Of a DNA stretch of 16,497 nt, positions 1,971 through 15,947 are shown one piece after another; the first letter of the stretch is position 1; each line of letters opens with the position of its first letter. Below the pieces are notes generated by a model, which had not been told where the DNA came from, ran no database searches, and saw only the letters and a program-made list of their open reading frames with translations. The position numbers and the translations under genes were made by a program. Location: the UHGV virus genome UHGV-0097332; one strand, written 5' to 3'. The DNA is from a virus.

Positions 1971-2155
1971 GGCCTTCCCCTTTTGCCCTGTTTGACCATC
2001 AGGACGCCGTTAACTATTACGTGACGCTCGCCTTTGCTGTCTCGGTTGTACTTGAGCACTGTTCCTCTTGCGCAGGAAAGCATCCTCGCCACTTCGGTCT
2101 GATTGCCTCGTGTCTGGATAAGAAGCTCTGGTATCGTTTGAATTGTGGCGTTCAT
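1967..2155 (-). CDS. ninH: NinH-like small DNA-binding protein
   Basis: 62-aa ORF whose core GNQTEVARMLSCARGTVLKY...IVNGVLMV resembles lambda NinH (orf-68). Stop overlaps the Q start. Confidence 0.75.
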   Translation of the reverse strand: MNATIQTIPELLIQTRGNQTEVARMLSCARGTVLKYNRDSKGERHVIVNGVLMVKQGKRGRP

Positions 2156-2514
2156 ACGCTCTCCAGTTCGGTGATTTTTATTCCAAGCCTTCCGCCTGGT
2201 ACTTTCACGCCACGAATTACGCGAATGTCATCGAATTGCTCGTCGTCTTCCGCAAATCCGGCGTGGATAAGAGAGTCGAGTAAACCTTTCAGGATGTTGT
2301 CGAGGTCGCGGCGGCGGGAGTCTGGAACGTCTGCGATGACTTTGATGCGGAGTCGTGATTTGGTGAAAATGTCTAACTTAAGTTGGCGGATGATTTGCTG
2401 AACGTCTTTTCGGTATTTCTGGCCTTTATCGCTGATGTAGTATTGACTTCCCCGTCTTCGCCAGTAGGTATTCAGCGACGGTGGGTATGGAAGTACAAAC
2501 TGATATTCGTTCAT
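2152..2514 (-). CDS. rusA: RusA-family Holliday-junction resolvase
   Basis: 120-aa ORF with conserved RusA features (PPSLNTYWRR, DxRRRDLDN, GGRL..I). It occupies the position of lambda ninG/rap in the nin region. Confidence 0.88.
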   Translation of the reverse strand: MNEYQFVLPYPPSLNTYWRRRGSQYYISDKGQKYRKDVQQIIRQLKLDIFTKSRLRIKVIADVPDSRRRDLDNILKGLLDSLIHAGFAEDDEQFDDIRVIRGVKVPGGRLGIKITELESV

Positions 2515-2801
2515 GGCTTAATCTTCCCCTCCTTCAGCAGGATCGCCTGCGTCCTGATCACGCCTTCGAGGTGGTAAAGTCTGGCGTCTTTGTTGTCGAG
2601 ATTATGGGTGCGTCGGTCGATTTCATCGTGACACGCGCTACAAGCCCATGCGCCGATCAGGTCGTCAGGTTTCATTCCCGTTCCGCAAATTCCAGCCATC
2701 CGGTAATGTGCCAGAACTGTAGTTTCAGGGTTGCCATTGCATATGCCGTAAATACGTACCTGGCATTCTCTGCCGCGCGCTTCTTTGCGTAGGTTAGCCA
2801 T
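2511..2801 (-). CDS. YbcO-like (DUF1364) nin-region protein, Cys-rich putative nuclease
   Basis: 96-aa ORF MANLRKEARGRECQVRI...CSACHDEIDRRTH resembling DLP12 YbcO as recalled. Overlapping stop/start with its neighbours. Confidence 0.7.
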   Translation of the reverse strand: MANLRKEARGRECQVRIYGICNGNPETTVLAHYRMAGICGTGMKPDDLIGAWACSACHDEIDRRTHNLDNKDARLYHLEGVIRTQAILLKEGKIKP

Positions 2802-4065: not shown

Positions 4066-4238
4066 TTCCTCGCACGATGTCTTAGCCACCGGATATCCCA
4101 CAGGTGAGCCGTGTAGTTGAAGGTTTTTACGTCAGATTCTTTTGGGATTGGCTTGCGTTTATTTCTGGAGCGCTTCGTTGGAAGGTATTTGCAGTTTTCG
4201 CAGATGATGTCGGTGATACTTCGTCGCTGTCGTCTCAT
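4062..4238 (-). CDS. ninE: NinE-like small basic protein (58 aa)
   Basis: Hand translation: [58 protein letters not shown]. Resembles lambda NinE (orf-60). Start ATG overlaps the NinB stop (ATGA). Confidence 0.7.
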
Positions 4239-4645
4239 TCATACCTCCTGTCGGTAAATCTGACACCCTGACCAATAGCCCAGGCTGTCGTGTACTCAAT
4301 CAGACTTGCCATGCGCTTCACACTCATCTGCGCGCTGCTTTCGCGAATGTTGACGTATTCGCCTTCAAGCCCGGGCAAAACATCAGCTTCCTGCTTTGTT
4401 GCCACTGCATGACCGCTTATCAACAAAACCTTCCATTGTTCTGGTTTTAACCATTTATCGCACCATTGAACCTGACGTGCGATATCCGCCAGCATCGCGT
4501 GAAATTTTGCGTTCTGGTCAAGGTTGCGCTTGTAGTCAGTAATGCGGATGGTGACTGGCTTGTCTTTATCGAGAGGAGTTTCGAGGATGGCGTTGATTGC
4601 GGCTTGCTGTTGTTGCTTACTTCGGAGGAAGATTGTTTGCTTCAT
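4235..4645 (-). CDS. ninB: NinB (orf-146 family) recombination protein
   Basis: 136-aa ORF with the NinB-like motif [22 protein letters not shown]; first gene of the nin cluster. Confidence 0.82.
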
Positions 4646-4652
4646 CGTTACC

Positions 4653-4859
4653 TCAACTCACAAAACGCCACGCCACTTTTGCTACGACAACAGGCATAAC
4701 ACCGATAATCACCCACAGGAAAATGCTACCGAAAAGCACACCAACCAGGTCTTTACCTTCGCCTACCAGCCGGACAAAACTGCTGGCAACCACAATGAAC
4801 GTCGCCACCATCCACATAGCACCGAGAATCCTCAATGCAGAAAAAATCAACTCAACCAC
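4653..4859 (-). CDS. Hypothetical small membrane protein (68 aa, two predicted transmembrane helices), GTG start
   Basis: Strong ribosome-binding site GGGGGAGAG six nt upstream of a GTG start. Highly hydrophobic product. Lies between the terminator at 4878-4918 and ninB. Confidence 0.4.
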   Translation of the reverse strand: MVELIFSALRILGAMWMVATFIVVASSFVRLVGEGKDLVGVLFGSIFLWVIIGVMPVVVAKVAWRFVS

Positions 4860-4877
4860 GATTTACTCTCCCCCAAA

Positions 4878-4918
4878 TAAAAAGGCCTGCGATTACCAGC
4901 AGGCCTTTATCTTTTTTT
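4878..4918. terminator. Bidirectional intrinsic terminator-like hairpin (possible tR2 analogue)
   Basis: Stem GGCCTGC (4884-4890) / GCAGGCC (4899-4905) with an 8-nt loop, flanked by an A-run upstream and TTTATCTTTTTTT downstream. It therefore looks like a terminator on both strands. Confidence 0.6.
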
Positions 4919-5518
4919 AACACGCTTTCGAGTCCTTTTAGATTTTTCCTTAAGATATTCCGCAAGTTTATCCTCATCATTATTAAATTGAGATAAAAGC
5001 TCATGCTCGCAATTAAGTGCTTTACTCGCATAAGTTCCATATAGTTTCTTTCTTGCTAGTGCTGCTATGAATGCTGCATCTTCTTTGCTATCGAAATACC
5101 CTAACGATATTGTCTTATTTTTATAACCAACATAAGACTTCCACCTGCCAGTTGTCTTATCCCAAGACACTCCAATCGCACCGGATGTGTTTAACCTATT
5201 CCCTACAATGTTTCTTGCATTCTGCTCCTCTGTTGCCAGTCTTAGATTTGAAATCCTATTGTCAAGTCTGTTCCCATTTACATGATCAATAAACTTAGGA
5301 GGCCATTTTTTGTATACATAGAACCAAGCAAGTCTATGCGCATAATACAAAACATTATTTATGCTAATGCATATATAACCACCACTAACACCTCCAGCAA
5401 TACTACCTTTTACTCTTACTACTGAATTTGTTTTTAGCCATTTAAATATTCCTGTTTCTGAGTCATATGATAATGTTGACAGAAGCTCATCGTGATCAAT
5501 TAGTTTTTTTATTCGCAT
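4907..5518 (-). CDS. HNH homing endonuclease with C-terminal AP2-type DNA-binding domain
   Basis: 203-aa ORF. HNH motif region YYAHRLAWFYVYKKWPPKFIDHVNGNRLDNRISNLRLATEEQNARN, then an AP2-like segment GVSWDKTTGRWKSYVGYKNKTISLGYFDSKEDAAFIAA. The gene is markedly AT-rich compared with its flanks. Confidence 0.85.
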   Translation of the reverse strand: MRIKKLIDHDELLSTLSYDSETGIFKWLKTNSVVRVKGSIAGGVSGGYICISINNVLYYAHRLAWFYVYKKWPPKFIDHVNGNRLDNRISNLRLATEEQNARNIVGNRLNTSGAIGVSWDKTTGRWKSYVGYKNKTISLGYFDSKEDAAFIAALARKKLYGTYASKALNCEHELLSQFNNDEDKLAEYLKEKSKRTRKRVKKR

Positions 5519-8712: not shown

Positions 8713-9429
<717 letters not shown>

Positions 9430-9436
9430 CACGTAA

Positions 9437-9874
9437 ATGATTAAAGAACGTATTTCTTATATCATTCCGATTGCGATGGATGAAGGCAACCCAGTAACTC
9501 CGGTTCTTATCTATGAAATGGATAAAGACTCCCATGAAGTGGATCTATCATTTGGCGCTTTTTTTATCGGCCTTAAGGCTACAAAAAAATATTCCATAGG
9601 CATTGAGGTTTTCAATGCTCAAGAAATACCGATACCAATTGACACAAAACTGTACTCCAACCATAAGTTTTTTACGGTAGCAGAAGCCAACGATGGAGAA
9701 ACCATCGTATCAACTTCTATGAGAATTAACTTCCCAAGGGTGAAAATTATCAAGCCTGGGATATTCGAAGTTAGAGCATCACTGGTTAATCCTGATAAAG
9801 GCGAAGTAATTGATGTAAAAAGTTCGTTTTTTGACGTGAAGATAACAGGATCAGTTCGCGATGAGTTTAGATAA
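9437..9874 (+). CDS. Hypothetical 145-aa protein in the rexA position (first gene of the candidate lysogen-expressed cassette)
   Basis: ORF starts 8 nt after the cI stop and is AT-rich. No transmembrane segment or recognisable motif. It is not RexA (lambda RexA is about 279 aa and unrelated in sequence, as recalled). Confidence 0.7.
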   Translation: MIKERISYIIPIAMDEGNPVTPVLIYEMDKDSHEVDLSFGAFFIGLKATKKYSIGIEVFNAQEIPIPIDTKLYSNHKFFTVAEANDGETIVSTSMRINFPRVKIIKPGIFEVRASLVNPDKGEVIDVKSSFFDVKITGSVRDEFR

Positions 9875-10232
9875 CAAGGTTGCTCAGCTTCGTCCAAATC
9901 AAAACATATCTCGCCCAATTGGACACTATTCCACTGATGATGCATACTCACGGCATGGTGGAGGAAACGGCGGAGGTAACATGCTTGAGGCTAGAGTTGC
10001 AAAGCTAGAGTCTGATGTTGAATACATCAAGCGCGATCTCGCTGAAGTAAAGTCAGATATAAAATCTGTAGATTCTCGTCTGTCAGGTATTGAGACAAGC
10101 ATTAGCTCAGCAAAAATCACCATCAAGGCATCTGCGGTCGTTGTCAGTTTCGTGTTCGCATTTTGCGCCTACATTTTTGGAAGTTATGTTTCCAAAATCC
10201 TTGATGCCTTAAACGGACTCGTTCTTAAGTAA
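9861..10232 (+). CDS. Hypothetical small coiled-coil protein with C-terminal transmembrane helix, in the rexB position (alternative start ATG 9981 gives 83 aa)
   Basis: 123-aa ORF overlapping the upstream ORF by 14 nt. Gly-rich segment, then coiled-coil heptads (LEARVAKLESDVEYIKRDLAEVKSDIKSVDSRL), then hydrophobic helix AVVVSFVFAFCAYIFGSYV. GGAGG motifs lie just upstream of the internal ATG at 9981. Followed directly by a terminator. Confidence 0.7.
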   Translation: MSLDNKVAQLRPNQNISRPIGHYSTDDAYSRHGGGNGGGNMLEARVAKLESDVEYIKRDLAEVKSDIKSVDSRLSGIETSISSAKITIKASAVVVSFVFAFCAYIFGSYVSKILDALNGLVLK

Positions 10233-10239
10233 CACACAA

Positions 10240-10265
10240 CCCGGCCTCAGCGCCGGGTTTTCTTT
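10240..10265 (+). terminator. Intrinsic terminator ending the cI-cassette operon (timm equivalent)
   Basis: Stem CCCGGC (10240-10245) / GCCGGG (10252-10257) with loop CTCAGC, then TTTTCTTT. Matches the sequence I recall downstream of lambda rexB. Confidence 0.8.
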
Positions 10266-10422: not shown

Positions 10423-10493
10423 AACCATATGCGGTGATAAATTATCTCTGGCGGTGTTGACATAAATACCACTGGCGGTGATACTAAACACAT
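10423..10493 (+). promoter_or_regulatory. pL promoter with OL3-OL2-OL1 operators
   Basis: OL3-like AACCATATGCGGTGATA (10423-10439), OL2 TATCTCTGGCGGTGTTG (10443-10459), OL1 TACCACTGGCGGTGATA (10467-10483). -35 TTGACA (10457-10462) and -10 GATACT (10481-10486). Confidence 0.9.
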
Positions 10494-10733: not shown

Positions 10734-11117
10734 ATGACACGCAGAACTCAGTTCAAAGGCAATTCACGTTCTCGTCGTCGTGAGCGTTTAAAGGCAAAGG
10801 CATTAGCTAACGGCGTACTGGCCCGCGAAGAAGCAATAAGTTCAGAAGTATTACACCGCCCTACTCTAAGCAGAGCGCAGATTCAGGCTAAAGGTACTCA
10901 CGAAACGCCTGATCGCATAGAAGACGCTAAGCCAATTAAGTTCATGGCACAGGACGTGATCTGGCAACAGAAAGAATACAGACGCAATCTGGAGCGAGCG
11001 GCCATTGTGTACGCGAATGAGTTTGGACATAAGCAACCAGAAACTGGTGTATGTCTTCCAAATGTAGCTCTTTACGCGGCAGGCTACCGGAAATCAAAAC
11101 AACTGACAGCGAGGTAA
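10734..11117 (+). CDS. N: N-like transcription antiterminator (arginine-rich motif; not lambda N)
   Basis: 127-aa ORF with an AGGAGG ribosome-binding site. N-terminal arginine-rich motif GNSRSRRRERLKAKA. First gene after pL/nutL. The boxB loop matches the P22 type as recalled. Confidence 0.78.
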   Translation: MTRRTQFKGNSRSRRRERLKAKALANGVLAREEAISSEVLHRPTLSRAQIQAKGTHETPDRIEDAKPIKFMAQDVIWQQKEYRRNLERAAIVYANEFGHKQPETGVCLPNVALYAAGYRKSKQLTAR

Positions 11118-11512: not shown

Positions 11513-12007
11513 TTAATAATTTGTCAGCGGCGGAACATATACAGGCTTAGGGGCTGGCGCTCTATACATCCGGTATTCATTCTTACAGCGAGGACATGAA
11601 TGCACAAAGAATCCATTAGATTTTATAGTAACCGTGCTTGGTTGAAGTATCGATATTTTATGTTCGCCGAAGCAATGTGCACAAAGGTTATGCTGCTGAA
11701 TAGAAGGATCGGAATGACTCTTAGGTCGATACACGACAGAACCACCTTCAGTTGTATGAAGTTCATAATTCTCAGCTTGCACAACAAACATCTTGATTTT
11801 TCTATTTTCATCTCGAAGCTTCATTGCGATCTCCTTCTCGGCCTGATAAAGGCCAGAGAGCTCCGCATTAAGCATCTGTAAGTCAGTTATTCTTTGGTGT
11901 AGATCACCAATAGCTTTAGCGATAACCGCATCGTCTCTGGTTTCTTTTATTGTCTTCAGCAGATCATAAGCCTGTTTCGCGGCAGTTATACCAGATAACA
12001 CATCCAT
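11513..12007 (-). CDS. Hypothetical coiled-coil protein with C-terminal zinc-ribbon (CxxC...CxxC), antisense to the pL operon
   Basis: 164-aa ORF on the opposite strand to all flanking early-left genes. AGAGAG ribosome-binding site upstream of the ATG. C-terminal motif CAHCFGEHK...SCPRCKNEY. AT-rich. Confidence 0.6.
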   Translation of the reverse strand: MDVLSGITAAKQAYDLLKTIKETRDDAVIAKAIGDLHQRITDLQMLNAELSGLYQAEKEIAMKLRDENRKIKMFVVQAENYELHTTEGGSVVYRPKSHSDPSIQQHNLCAHCFGEHKISILQPSTVTIKSNGFFVHSCPRCKNEYRMYRAPAPKPVYVPPLTNY

Positions 12008-12303
12008 ATAAATTACTCTCTTACTGTAGGGGTGAATAGAGTTTATCCGATTTCTCGCTGTAGGGGTACTCGAGAACCACCGAGCCTGATGTGGTTAAAA
12101 GACAGGCATACGAATAAACACTGCACTGTGTATTCATTCCAACGAGTGAATACACGGAGCAATGTCGCTCGTAACTAAACAGGAGCCGACTTGTTCTGAT
12201 TATTGGAAATCTTCTTTGCACTCCAATGTGAGGGCCTTTTTATATGCATACCAATAACGCTTCACTCGAGGCGTTTTCGTTATGTATAAATAAGGAGCAC
12301 ACC

Positions 12304-12444
12304 ATGCAATATGCCATTGCAGGGTGGCCTGTTGCTGGCTGCCCTTCCGAATCTTTACTTGAACGAATCACCCGCAAATTACGTGACGGATGGAAACGAC
12401 TCATCGACGTACTTAATCAGCCAGGAGTTCCCAAAAATGGATAA
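12304..12444 (+). CDS. cIII: CIII (FtsH/HflB inhibitor), 46 aa, ending at TAA relative to the 54-aa lambda protein
   Basis: AAGGAG ribosome-binding site 7 nt upstream. MQYAIAGWPVAGCPSESLLERITRKLRDGWKRLIDVLNQPGVPKNG matches lambda CIII residues 1-46 as recalled. The stop is TAA where lambda has a Ser codon; the out-of-frame downstream codons would still read NTYGYPD. Confidence 0.85.
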   Translation: MQYAIAGWPVAGCPSESLLERITRKLRDGWKRLIDVLNQPGVPKNG

Positions 12445-12550
12445 AACACTTATGGCTATCCAGACTAAATTCACTATCGCCACTTTTATTGGCGATGAAA
12501 AGATGTTTCGTGAAGCCGTAGAAGCCTACAGAAAATGGAGGTCAAAATGA
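12437..12550 (+). CDS. kil: Kil-like small protein (37 aa; lambda Kil is an FtsZ inhibitor)
   Basis: ATG overlaps the cIII 3' end. MDKTLMAIQTKFTIATFIGDEKMFREAVEAYRKW... resembles the N-terminus of lambda Kil as recalled; the C-terminus differs and is shorter. Confidence 0.6.
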   Translation: MDKTLMAIQTKFTIATFIGDEKMFREAVEAYRKWRSK

Positions 12551-12735
12551 TTCCGGTAGAACTGGCGAAAACCCCAGAGTTAAGTCGATTAAAAAGAGAA
12601 TATCACATTGCTGAGGCTCGTTACTGGCGTAAGGCGGGAGATAAATCAAAGAAACAACTTTGTTTATGGCAGGCACAAAGAGAGCGCATGAATGAGCGCG
12701 AGTTTCTTTCCTGCCCATCCGAATTACCATTCTGA
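12547..12735 (+). CDS. Hypothetical 62-aa protein
   Basis: ATG overlaps the kil stop (ATGA). No family recognised; basic, helical-looking. Confidence 0.4.
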   Translation: MIPVELAKTPELSRLKREYHIAEARYWRKAGDKSKKQLCLWQAQRERMNEREFLSCPSELPF

Positions 12736-12743
12736 GGCAAATT

Positions 12744-13424
12744 ATGGGAACTGCGACATTAATACTCGGTGAATCTGGCACCGGAAAGTCAACCAGCATG
12801 AGAAATATCAATCCAGAGGAAGCAATACTTATAAAACCAATAGGCAAGCCGCTACCATTTAAATCAAAAGACTGGCTTGCATGGGATGCCAGAGCAAAAA
12901 AAGGAACCGTAGTTACCACTGACAAATGGCACGTAATAGTTGCTGTAATTAAGCGTGCTCACGAATACGGAAAAAGAATCGTTATTGTTGATGACTTCCA
13001 GTATGTGATGAGCAATGAGTTTATGCGCCGCTCAGAAGAAAAATCGTTTGATAAATTTACTGAGATAGGCCGCCACGCATGGGAGGTGATTAAGGCTGCA
13101 CAGGATGCACCTGATGACCTGAGAGTCTATTTTCTTGCACATACCGAAGAAACCCCTATGGGGCGCGTGAAAATGAAAACTATCGGCAAAATGCTGGACG
13201 AGAAAATCACTGTCGAAGGCATGTTTACTATAGTTCTTCGCACTCTTACCCACGATGACCAGTTCTTTTTCACCACGAAAAACAACGGTGCAGACACTGT
13301 TAAATCCCCAATGGGAATGTTTGATTCCAATGAGATTGATAACGATCTCTCTTTCGTCGATGCCACTGTTTGTGATTACTACGGCATCAATAATGTTCAT
13401 CAAATTAAGGAAAACGCCGCATGA
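12744..13424 (+). CDS. P-loop ATPase, RecA-like core (putative Sak4/AAA_24-type recombination protein)
   Basis: 226-aa ORF. Walker A GESGTGKST at residues 9-17 and Walker B IVIVDDFQ. Size and position (where lambda has its Red genes) suggest a Sak4-like protein; the family assignment is from memory. Confidence 0.65.
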   Translation: MGTATLILGESGTGKSTSMRNINPEEAILIKPIGKPLPFKSKDWLAWDARAKKGTVVTTDKWHVIVAVIKRAHEYGKRIVIVDDFQYVMSNEFMRRSEEKSFDKFTEIGRHAWEVIKAAQDAPDDLRVYFLAHTEETPMGRVKMKTIGKMLDEKITVEGMFTIVLRTLTHDDQFFFTTKNNGADTVKSPMGMFDSNEIDNDLSFVDATVCDYYGINNVHQIKENAA

Positions 13425-14008
13425 GCAACGTGATTTTTACTTATAACGAAGAAGCAGCACTGACCGCAGGGCAAGGTGGTTTTATTAACGAAACTGGTGC
13501 TCATATCATTACCATTACTGAAGCAGAACTAAAGCAATCAGAAAAAGGAGCCAAATTTATTGAGTTTTCTGGCGAATCTGACGACGGACGTAAAATCCAA
13601 TATCTTAGCGTCTGTGTTCAGAAAAATGACGGAACGGAAAACAAATTTGGCGCAAATGTCGTTCACGCCATGATGGGGTGTGCCGGGATTGGACAATTAA
13701 CGCAGCATATGGTTTCCGCCAGTAAATTTGTTGCACCTGAATTTCATGGAAAGAAAATCGGGTTAGTGCTCCAGAAAGTATTAACCACAAACAAAAAGAC
13801 TGGCGCAGACAGCTACCAGATGGAAATACGCATCCCGTTTATTGCACAAACAGGTCAAACCCTTAAAGAAAAGGCAGAAGGCAAGCAACCAGAAACTATC
13901 GCCAACATGGTTGCCAATCTCAAAGATAAAGACAATCGCTCTAAAAACGTAAGCCAGAATCATGCAGATGATTATGGTTACAGCCAGAACGATTACCCTG
14001 CTTTCTGA
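13421..14008 (+). CDS. Hypothetical protein partnered with the ATPase (possible single-strand-DNA-binding protein, DUF669-like)
   Basis: 195-aa ORF whose start overlaps the ATPase stop. Function inferred only from the commonly seen gene pairing, not from a motif I can point to. Confidence 0.45.
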   Translation: MSNVIFTYNEEAALTAGQGGFINETGAHIITITEAELKQSEKGAKFIEFSGESDDGRKIQYLSVCVQKNDGTENKFGANVVHAMMGCAGIGQLTQHMVSASKFVAPEFHGKKIGLVLQKVLTTNKKTGADSYQMEIRIPFIAQTGQTLKEKAEGKQPETIANMVANLKDKDNRSKNVSQNHADDYGYSQNDYPAF

Positions 14009-14031
14009 TTACTGAAAATAAGGCTCCCATT

Positions 14032-14325
14032 ATGCCAGCGCCTCTGTATGGTGCGGATGACCCGCGCCGCTGTTCCGGCAATTCCGTATTGGAGGTGCTG
14101 GATAAATTCAGAAAAAACTACGACCTGATAATGTCGCTACCGCAGGAAACGAAAGAGGAAAAGGAATTTCGCCATTGTATATGGCTTGCAGAGAAAGAAG
14201 AACGCGAGCGAATTTACCAGACATCAATCCGACCATTCCGCAAAGCCACATATACCCACTTCCCTGAAATTGACCCACGCCTGCGTAATTACCGCTCACG
14301 CTATGGCGCTATCAGTAATGACTGA
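14032..14325 (+). CDS. Hypothetical 97-aa protein
   Basis: ORF with a plausible ribosome-binding site, in the same orientation as the operon; no family recognised. Confidence 0.5.
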
Positions 14326-14335
14326 GGAATTTACC

Positions 14336-14503
14336 ATGAGAGGACTTGCATACAATCCCGGCATTCTTCCGGCAGAAATGATTATTCGCCAACGCGTAAA
14401 GCCAATGCCATCGAGAGAGGAATTGCTTAAGAGAAATAGTTTCGGTTCTGTTAATGACAACAAATATCTGAATGCGATGTGGCGCAAAGGAGGCAACCAG
14501 TGA
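14336..14503 (+). CDS. Hypothetical 55-aa protein
   Basis: GAGGAA ribosome-binding site 7 nt upstream of the ATG at 14336. Stop overlaps the next start. Confidence 0.4.
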
Positions 14504-14754
14504 GTAATTCAGCACGACTACAGCTTGGTTTTTCACCGCTATCAAAAACTATCATGCTGGCAAAAATGCGCGATGTTGAAGGTGGACGTATGCGCGTTGG
14601 CAATGATCCAGGTCGTGATGTTACCAATGAGGCTGCTCAATTGGTGTGGCAACTGGTCATGGCTGAAGGTGGTGAGATAGTGTGGGAGCTGGATGATGGT
14701 TCTCGCATGGTGTTGAAGGCAGAAAAGCAGGAGGCAACCAGTGAGCAAGATTGA
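14500..14754 (+). CDS. Hypothetical 84-aa protein (GTG start)
   Basis: GTG at 14500 is preceded by GGAGG and overlaps the upstream stop (GTGA). An ATG at 14554 is an alternative start. Confidence 0.4.
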
Positions 14755-15430
14755 CTATCAGGCACTGCGTGAAAAGGCAGAGAAAGCAACGTGTGGTGTG
14801 TGGTCGCTCGAATATGGAGAGGAGAGATTTGATGCTGGTGATGCGCTAATTCATCGTGAAGTTGTTGGATATCTTCCCATTTGCAGAATTGAAGGAGCGC
14901 ATCCTGAAAGCGGTTTCGATGAAGATTTCCAAATGGAACAGCAGGCCAATGCTGAATTCATCGCTGCAGCCAATCCGGCTACTGTGCTGGCACTGCTGGA
15001 TGAACGGGAAAGAAACCAGCAATACATCAAACGCCGCGACCAGGAGAACGAGGATATTGCGCTTACGGTAGGGAAGCTGCGTGTTGGGCTTGAGGCCGCA
15101 GAGAAGCGCAACGCTGAATTACAAAGCGAGAATGCATACATCCGCAACCGGTACAAAGAACTGGACCTATTAATCGGGAAAAACATTCTGGTCATGCAGG
15201 CTGCCATTATCGAATGGCAGGCAACTGGCGACGCTAAGAGCGGACTGGCATGGATTTATAACACACTGTTTGGCCCAGGCGAATTGCCGGACGAATCTGA
15301 GAAAGATGCTCAGGCCTACTTTAATCGCAAATATGCACCGATTGACGAAAAGCTTATGGCGCTTCACAAGTGGTTTTGGGAACAAAATGAAGCTGAGCGC
15401 GCCGCTGGCATTCGCATCAAAGGAGAGTGA
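14741..15430 (+). CDS. Hypothetical 229-aa coiled-coil protein (possibly Ead/Ea22-like)
   Basis: GTG start preceded by the same AGGAGGCAACCAGTGAG motif seen at 14486. Central coiled-coil region (ERNQQYIKRRDQENEDIALTVGKLRVGLEAAEKRNAELQSENAYIRNRYKEL). The Ea22-like name is a weak recollection. Confidence 0.55.
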   Translation: MSKIDYQALREKAEKATCGVWSLEYGEERFDAGDALIHREVVGYLPICRIEGAHPESGFDEDFQMEQQANAEFIAAANPATVLALLDERERNQQYIKRRDQENEDIALTVGKLRVGLEAAEKRNAELQSENAYIRNRYKELDLLIGKNILVMQAAIIEWQATGDAKSGLAWIYNTLFGPGELPDESEKDAQAYFNRKYAPIDEKLMALHKWFWEQNEAERAAGIRIKGE

Positions 15431-15431
15431 T

Positions 15432-15947
15432 ATGGCGTTAACACACCGCGAACTCTGTCAGATTGCGTACAAGTTCCTTAAGCGCAACGGGTTCAAGGTT
15501 TGTTTTCATGACCGCTTTATAGCTGTAACCAGTACCGGAGAACAGCCAGATGCTATGGGATTCAGAAATTCAGCATCATGCCTGATAGAGGCGAAATGTT
15601 CTCGTGCTGACTTGTTGGCAGACAGAAAAAAGCGTTTTCGTAAAAATCCGTCTCTTGGAATGGGCGACTGGCGATTCTTTATTAGTGAGCCGGGAATTAT
15701 TTCAATTGAGGATTTACCACCTGGCTGGGGATTACTTCACGTTGTTAACGGAAGAGTACGGAAAGTACATGGGTGGCCCAAGGGTAATTGCTGTTGGGGT
15801 AATCCTGACGATAAGCCATTTACTGGAAATAAGCAGGTTGAATGCGATTACATGTTATCGGCATTAAGGCGCATGGAGTTGAGAGGGCACCTTAATGAAA
15901 TATATGACGGTGTAATTGTTAATAAGAAAGAAGGAAACGCGGCATGA
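15432..15947 (+). CDS. Hypothetical 171-aa protein
   Basis: ATG at 15432, one nt after the upstream stop, with a GGAGAG ribosome-binding site. The ORF-track extension back to 15270 overlaps the upstream gene and is discounted. No family recognised. Confidence 0.55.
   Translation: MALTHRELCQIAYKFLKRNGFKVCFHDRFIAVTSTGEQPDAMGFRNSASCLIEAKCSRADLLADRKKRFRKNPSLGMGDWRFFISEPGIISIEDLPPGWGLLHVVNGRVRKVHGWPKGNCCWGNPDDKPFTGNKQVECDYMLSALRRMELRGHLNEIYDGVIVNKKEGNAA

Follow-up and report, generated by a model that had tools for sequence, protein, structure and literature searches.

A near-identical copy of the HK620-type Sak4-SSB recombination module in a mosaic lambdoid phage genome

Gene content of the early-left operon

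The window, as the whole stretch of 16,497 nt of viral DNA analysed in this work is called here, is composed of HK97-, HK620- and HK629-like segments. No record covering at least 80% of it was found among phage and E. coli records, and by sequence comparison the window is a new mosaic, as is normal for lambdoid phages. The best megablast matches of its right-hand part are phages HK620 and HK629. This part carries the early-left operon, the features of which are listed in Table 1 along with those of the nin region. The best promoter-like site in the interval from 10.2 to 16.5 kb resembles pL and would drive the operon. The cIII and kil genes, recognized by Pfam profiles within longer ORFs, lie directly upstream of a recombination module, as anticipated by the original prediction, which had located the module downstream of kil. 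Read from an internal ATG, cIII spans 141 nt, the same length as the HK620 gene; kil spans 114 nt, as does HK620 kil, and its stop codon overlaps the start of hkaM as ATGA.

The P-loop ATPase and the overlapping partner protein foreseen from the sequence are both in place. The stop of sak4 and the start of ssb overlap by 4 nt (gcATGAgc, 13421-13424), and an AAGGA ribosome-binding site is found just 5'. Both are genuine genes rather than chance ORFs, since their products are conserved at 55-99% identity in hundreds of clusters. The module includes four genes rather than two, hkaM and abc2 having been overlooked. Position and length (189 nt) of hkaM match those of HK620 hkaM, and the gene is present in all of the 73 IMG/VR loci in which the SSB is linked to Sak4. 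In the same 73 loci, as well as in HK620 and HK629, abc2 is the next gene after ssb. The Abc2 product additionally matches phrog_656 (3.2e-54).

Table 1. Features of the early-left operon and recombination genes of the nin region in the window
Feature	Position	Strand	Description
RusA resolvase	2152-2514	-	nin region
YbcO	2511-2801	-	putative nuclease; nin region
NinB/Orf	4235-4645	-	recombination protein; nin region
pL-like promoter	10457-10485	+	TTGACA-17-GATACT, 10/12 consensus matches; consensus match only
N-like antiterminator	10734-11117		phrog_271; downstream of the pL-like promoter
cIII	12304-12444	+	Pfam Lambda_CIII 9.4e-30, residues 22-63 of ORF 12244-12444
kil	12437-12550	+	Pfam Lambda_Kil 5.5e-21, residues 44-74 of ORF 12311-12550
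hkaM	12547-12735	+	small first gene of HK620-type Rec module; 62 codons; phrog_1723 3.3e-33
sak4 (hkaL)	12744-13424	+	predicted RecA-core-only, ATP-dependent single-strand annealing protein; 226 aa, ATG start
ssb (hkaK, 'SSB-2')	13421-14008	+	predicted cognate single-strand-binding protein; 195 aa, ATG start; C-terminal tail NDYPAF
abc2	14032-14325	+	anti-RecBCD; Pfam Anti-RecBCD_p2 (PF11043) 6.6e-64, residues 1-97 on profile 1-97

No member of the Gam, Bet/RecT or Exo/YqaJ families was found among the scanned plus-strand ORFs from 12244 to 15947, and the same scan detected RecT and YqaJ in the loci L074-L081 described below. The claim that no exonuclease is evident thus holds for the pL operon (plus strand, 12.2-15.9 kb). 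The hypothesis of a hidden exonuclease in the operon was rejected, no ORF matching YqaJ, Exo or RecE. The lack of a phage-encoded exonuclease is expected for this type of module, since Abc2, as known from P22, converts the host RecBCD into a resection activity able to prepare DNA ends. Recombination genes flank the immunity region on either side, NinB, RusA and YbcO being encoded in the nin region.

Features of the ATPase and of its partner

The Sak4 protein carries a Walker A motif (GESGTGKS) near the N-terminus, at residues 9-16, and a Walker B motif (IVIVDD) at residues 79-84. Residues G9, S11, G12, G14, K15, D83 and D84 do not vary among 43 relatives, the most distant of which share 54% identity. 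Profile searches returned hits of different strength. In Pfam, the match to AAA_24 (PF13479) is marginal, 29.5 bits against a cutoff of 27, and the generic AAA_22 profile matches at a similar level; in PHROG, the full-length protein matches phrog_2872, 'Sak4-like ssDNA annealing protein', at 1.1e-107. An AlphaFold2 model built from 43 relatives (54-88% identity) reached a pLDDT of 87.5. In the model, Sak4 is predicted to adopt the RecA/Rad51 core fold, devoid of extra N- or C-terminal DNA-binding domains. Fold comparison retrieved a solved Sak4 as best structural match, followed mostly by recombinases.

The partner protein matches phrog_743, 'single strand DNA binding protein' (1.1e-66). Among the profiles by which the pair was to be checked, AAA_24 matched marginally and an SSB profile matched in PHROG, but DUF669 did not: with the threshold relaxed to E<=10, the partner still matched neither DUF669 nor any SSB profile of Pfam. 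For all of the 120 SSB relatives listed, the Pfam column computed beforehand is likewise blank, though their NCBI name is 'DUF669 domain-containing protein', and DUF669 has been equated with HkaK-type SSBs (Hutinet 2018, PMC5928155). The missing match is treated as a discrepancy in profile sensitivity, and not as evidence against the SSB assignment. The model of the protein (pLDDT 80) exhibits a beta-barrel core, a predicted nucleic-acid-binding OB-fold, and a disordered tail, with pLDDT below 50 at residues 177-192. The C-terminal tail, ADDYGYSQNDYPAF, is disordered and acidic, of the partner-recruiting type ending in P-F, with A replacing the penultimate P. Profiles and models thus point to a recombination ATPase and to a partner with a nucleic-acid-binding fold, and not to a kinase-like or terminase-like enzyme flanked by a protein lacking such a fold, the outcome that the original prediction had indicated as contrary to it.

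Searches of the PDB by sequence, run with Sak4 and SSB both as single sequences and as 43-sequence profiles, revealed no significant relatives, and the two proteins are linked to solved structures by fold comparison only. A search of NCBIfam with five proteins of the module region returned nothing meaningful. In RefSeq E. coli genomes, Sak4 is labelled 'ATP-binding protein' and the SSB 'hypothetical protein'.

Relation to HK620 and plausible mode of action

The assignment of the pair to Sak4-type ATPases and their single-strand-binding partners is borne out by comparison with HK620. Gene order (hkaM-sak4-ssb-abc2) and gene lengths are alike in the two phages, except that Abc2 has 97 aa here and 98 aa in HK620, and over its full length the 1791-bp segment that spans hkaM to abc2 shows a DNA identity of 97.7%. 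Sak4 and HkaL are 99% identical, and differ by three substitutions (D43, H63 and H170 in place of E, D and R); the SSB and HkaK are 98% identical, and also differ by three (E153, N166 and A194 in place of V, S and P). Outside the module, the window and the HK620 genome are different mosaics. By these identities the sak4-ssb pair is a near-identical copy of a characterised, and hence already known, system. In RefSeq, hkaL and hkaK of HK620 and HK629 are named 'Sak4-like ssDNA annealing protein' and 'single strand DNA binding protein', respectively. The module was identified by bioinformatics in 2010 and characterised biochemically in 2018; HK620 Sak4, 'SSB-2' and Abc2 are explicitly catalogued in a 2025 Genome Research survey of lambdoid Rec modules.

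The properties of the HK620 proteins are known in some detail (Hutinet 2018, PMC5928155). In a recA mutS host, sak4 alone increased oligonucleotide recombineering 15-fold, and either sak4 plus ssb or the whole four-gene module about 210-fold; hkaM, an orphan, is dispensable for stimulation. Sak4 binds and anneals ssDNA in an ATP-dependent manner. HkaK is a genuine SSB, and Sak4 needs its last six residues, NDYPPF, to bind ssDNA covered by the SSB; most of the stimulation depends on them too. About 80% of sak4 genes adjoin a cognate ssb. Abc2 is best known from P22, where it binds RecC, blocks the response to Chi and turns RecBCD into a resection activity preparing DNA ends (PMC5928155; 2025 survey). 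Neither the P22 nor the HK620 Rec module includes a nuclease, because Abc2 redirects RecBCD.

The best reading, to which a probability of about 0.93 is assigned, is that a lambdoid phage or prophage carries here a recombination module of HK620 type, in which hkaM, sak4, ssb and abc2 would ensure resection by Abc2-modified RecBCD, coating of the strands by SSB and annealing by Sak4. Judging from gene order, transcription from pL, antiterminated by N, would lead to the expression of cIII, kil, hkaM, sak4, ssb and abc2. Abc2, if it acts as in P22, would bind the host RecBCD and make resection unresponsive to Chi, generating ssDNA at the ends. As resection is carried out by the converted RecBCD, the phage would need no exonuclease of its own. 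The high identity to the HK620 proteins suggests that the phage SSB would bind and coat the ssDNA leaving its C-terminal tail exposed, that the tail (NDYPAF here) would recruit ATP-bound Sak4 and stimulate it, and that Sak4, which should bind ssDNA only with ATP, would anneal complementary SSB-coated strands. Annealing may in turn support phage recombination, mosaicism and, probably, the formation of concatemers.

The overall job, end processing plus single-strand annealing, is the same carried out by lambda Red (Gam, Bet, Exo) and by Arf/Erf/Abc1/Abc2 of P22, which share with the module the slot of the pL operon downstream of kil. The abc2 gene is common to P22 and the module. The tools are different. 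Bet and Erf resemble Rad52 and work without ATP, whereas Sak4-type annealases have a RecA fold and require ATP. In contrast to lambda Red, the module features neither an exonuclease nor Gam, and depends on a phage SSB for full activity.

The main role of the pair in vivo might rather be in replication, either in the switch to rolling-circle or concatemer synthesis or in restart, with a mainly replicative SSB and recombineering-type annealing as a by-product. As cited in PMC5928155, staphylococcal phages mutated in sak/sak4 and ssb barely form genome multimers (Neamah 2017). Rec modules have been tied to the theta-to-sigma replication switch (2025 survey), and SSB-HK620 also stimulates strand exchange mediated by RecA (PMC5928155). 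Yet this hypothesis, unlikely as a replacement for the recombination module outlined above, refines it more than it competes with it, since one biochemical activity, the annealing of ssDNA coated by SSB, would serve both.

Less probable still is that Sak4 and SSB act as a true strand-exchange recombinase of the RecA/Rad51 type, which forms filaments and invades duplex DNA instead of annealing single strands. The RecA/Rad51-like fold retrieved by fold comparison is in line with this idea, as is the filamentous form assumed by the Sak4 of staphylococcal phage 52A in cryo-EM (PMC11846896). In addition, HK620 sak4 plus ssb is reported to allow recombination without recA, at a low level, when assayed by conjugation (PMC5928155). 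However, HK620 Sak4 did not carry out strand exchange in vitro, with or without its SSB, nor did it stimulate RecA, and Sak4, being of 226 aa, lacks the secondary DNA-binding domain of about 70 residues of RecA/Rad51 (PMC5928155), in agreement with the model. The Sak4 of phage 52A (PDB 8rc5; PMC11846896) is only 13% identical to Sak4 in the structural alignment. Phage 52A, and the lactococcal and staphylococcal Sak4 proteins, belong to phages of another host phylum, and no Stl-type satellite interaction is known for coliphage Sak4. Archaeal RadB and the RAD51 paralogs (RAD51C, RAD51D, XRCC2, XRCC3) share only 9-18% sequence identity with Sak4; ATP is not required by RadB, which inhibits strand exchange by RadA, whereas Sak4 binds ssDNA strictly with ATP.

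That the ATPase is a P-loop NTPase outside recombination (a kinase, a helicase loader or a packaging ATPase) flanked by an unrelated small protein is already effectively refuted by published biochemistry and deserves practically no credit, given the 99% identity to a protein shown to act as an annealase, the structural matches reported above, the linkage to SSB and abc2 in 73 of 81 loci, and the location of the gene in the slot of bet, erf or recT in other lambdoid phages. A defence-system role for Sak4, SSB and the neighbouring ORFs of unknown function was considered and dropped, as PADLOC gave only sub-threshold P-loop noise.

Distribution of the module, variation of the SSB tail and accessory ORFs

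Of 5426 complete E. coli genomes, 180 carry the module at a coverage of at least 80%, as do 65 phage records, many Stx-converting phages among them. Being common in E. coli prophages, it has little weight as a discovery; its practical value lies in the correct annotation of genes to which RefSeq attaches only generic labels. IMG/VR loci encoding this SSB are 81, and in 73 of them the order is hkaM>sak4>ssb>abc2. The SSB of the window departs from the majority consensus of the 73 Sak4-linked relatives at two residues only, N166 and A194. The latter, encoded within the last six codons of ssb (13991-14008, stop included), is the last residue but one in the essential hexapeptide. Among the 73 loci, residue 194 is A in seven and S in two, so that A or S at this site is a recurrent natural polymorphism. 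In an alignment with the tail of E. coli SSB (DDDIPF), A194 falls on the residue altered in ssb-113 (P176S), a mutation which impairs partner binding (PMC3045619). That the polymorphism retunes the partner choice of the phage SSB, either towards Sak4 or towards host SSB-interacting proteins, is a tentative idea, and rather a doubtful one.

In the eight remaining loci (L074-L081; e.g. L074:2294-4588), SSBs 85-88% identical to that of the window are encoded after RecT (PF03837) and a YqaJ exonuclease (PF09588), and not after Sak4. Over residues 1-176 the Sak4-linked and RecT-linked consensus sequences show 89-90% identity, but of the last eight residues only two are shared (...SQNDYPPF and ...WQYGGDNF, respectively), the tail of the RecT-linked proteins conforming to the pattern WQYG[GS]D[NS]F. 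This suggests that the SSB tail is exchanged in keeping with the recombinase that the protein partners. If the polymorphism does retune partner choice, the wholesale replacement of the tail beside RecT and exonuclease would reveal a modular partner code. The pattern agrees with the 'shuffling of partner interaction domains' mentioned, without analysis, in the 2025 survey, and the natural tail variants are ready-made alleles to address how the tail chooses the recombinase partner, a question raised by the same survey.

Several additional ORFs of the window are worth mentioning. A minus-strand ORF of 203 aa (4907-5518), with HNH_3 and AP2 domains of the homing-endonuclease type, sits between ninB and a DnaB-like helicase gene, in the stretch of lowest GC content of the window (0.405 at 4501-5500), and is probably a mobile insertion. 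Downstream of a cI-type repressor gene (8716-9429), two plus-strand ORFs of 145 and 123 aa (phrog_5893 and phrog_6136; 9437-10259) occupy the position of lambda rexAB. The stretch ends at a strong terminator-like hairpin (10238-10259). PADLOC found no matches for either ORF; the two may be exclusion genes expressed by the prophage. Within the pL operon, and on the opposite strand, an ORF of 164 aa (11513-12007; phrog_1244) carries CxxC...CxxC motifs and is homologous to HK620 hkaP, annotated as putative superinfection exclusion protein.

Finally, a plus-strand ORF of 171 aa (15432-15947) displays a PD-(D/E)xK-like motif (EQPDAMGF...CLIEAKCS). It had no Pfam, NCBIfam, PADLOC or PDB sequence match, and falls into PHROGs 9263 and 631, both without assigned function. 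A 100% identical stretch occurs in phage P7 (Upf89.0/89.5); relatives of the ORF, found in 641 phage records, are almost all annotated as hypothetical. The ORF may encode an uncharacterised nuclease of the early-left operon.
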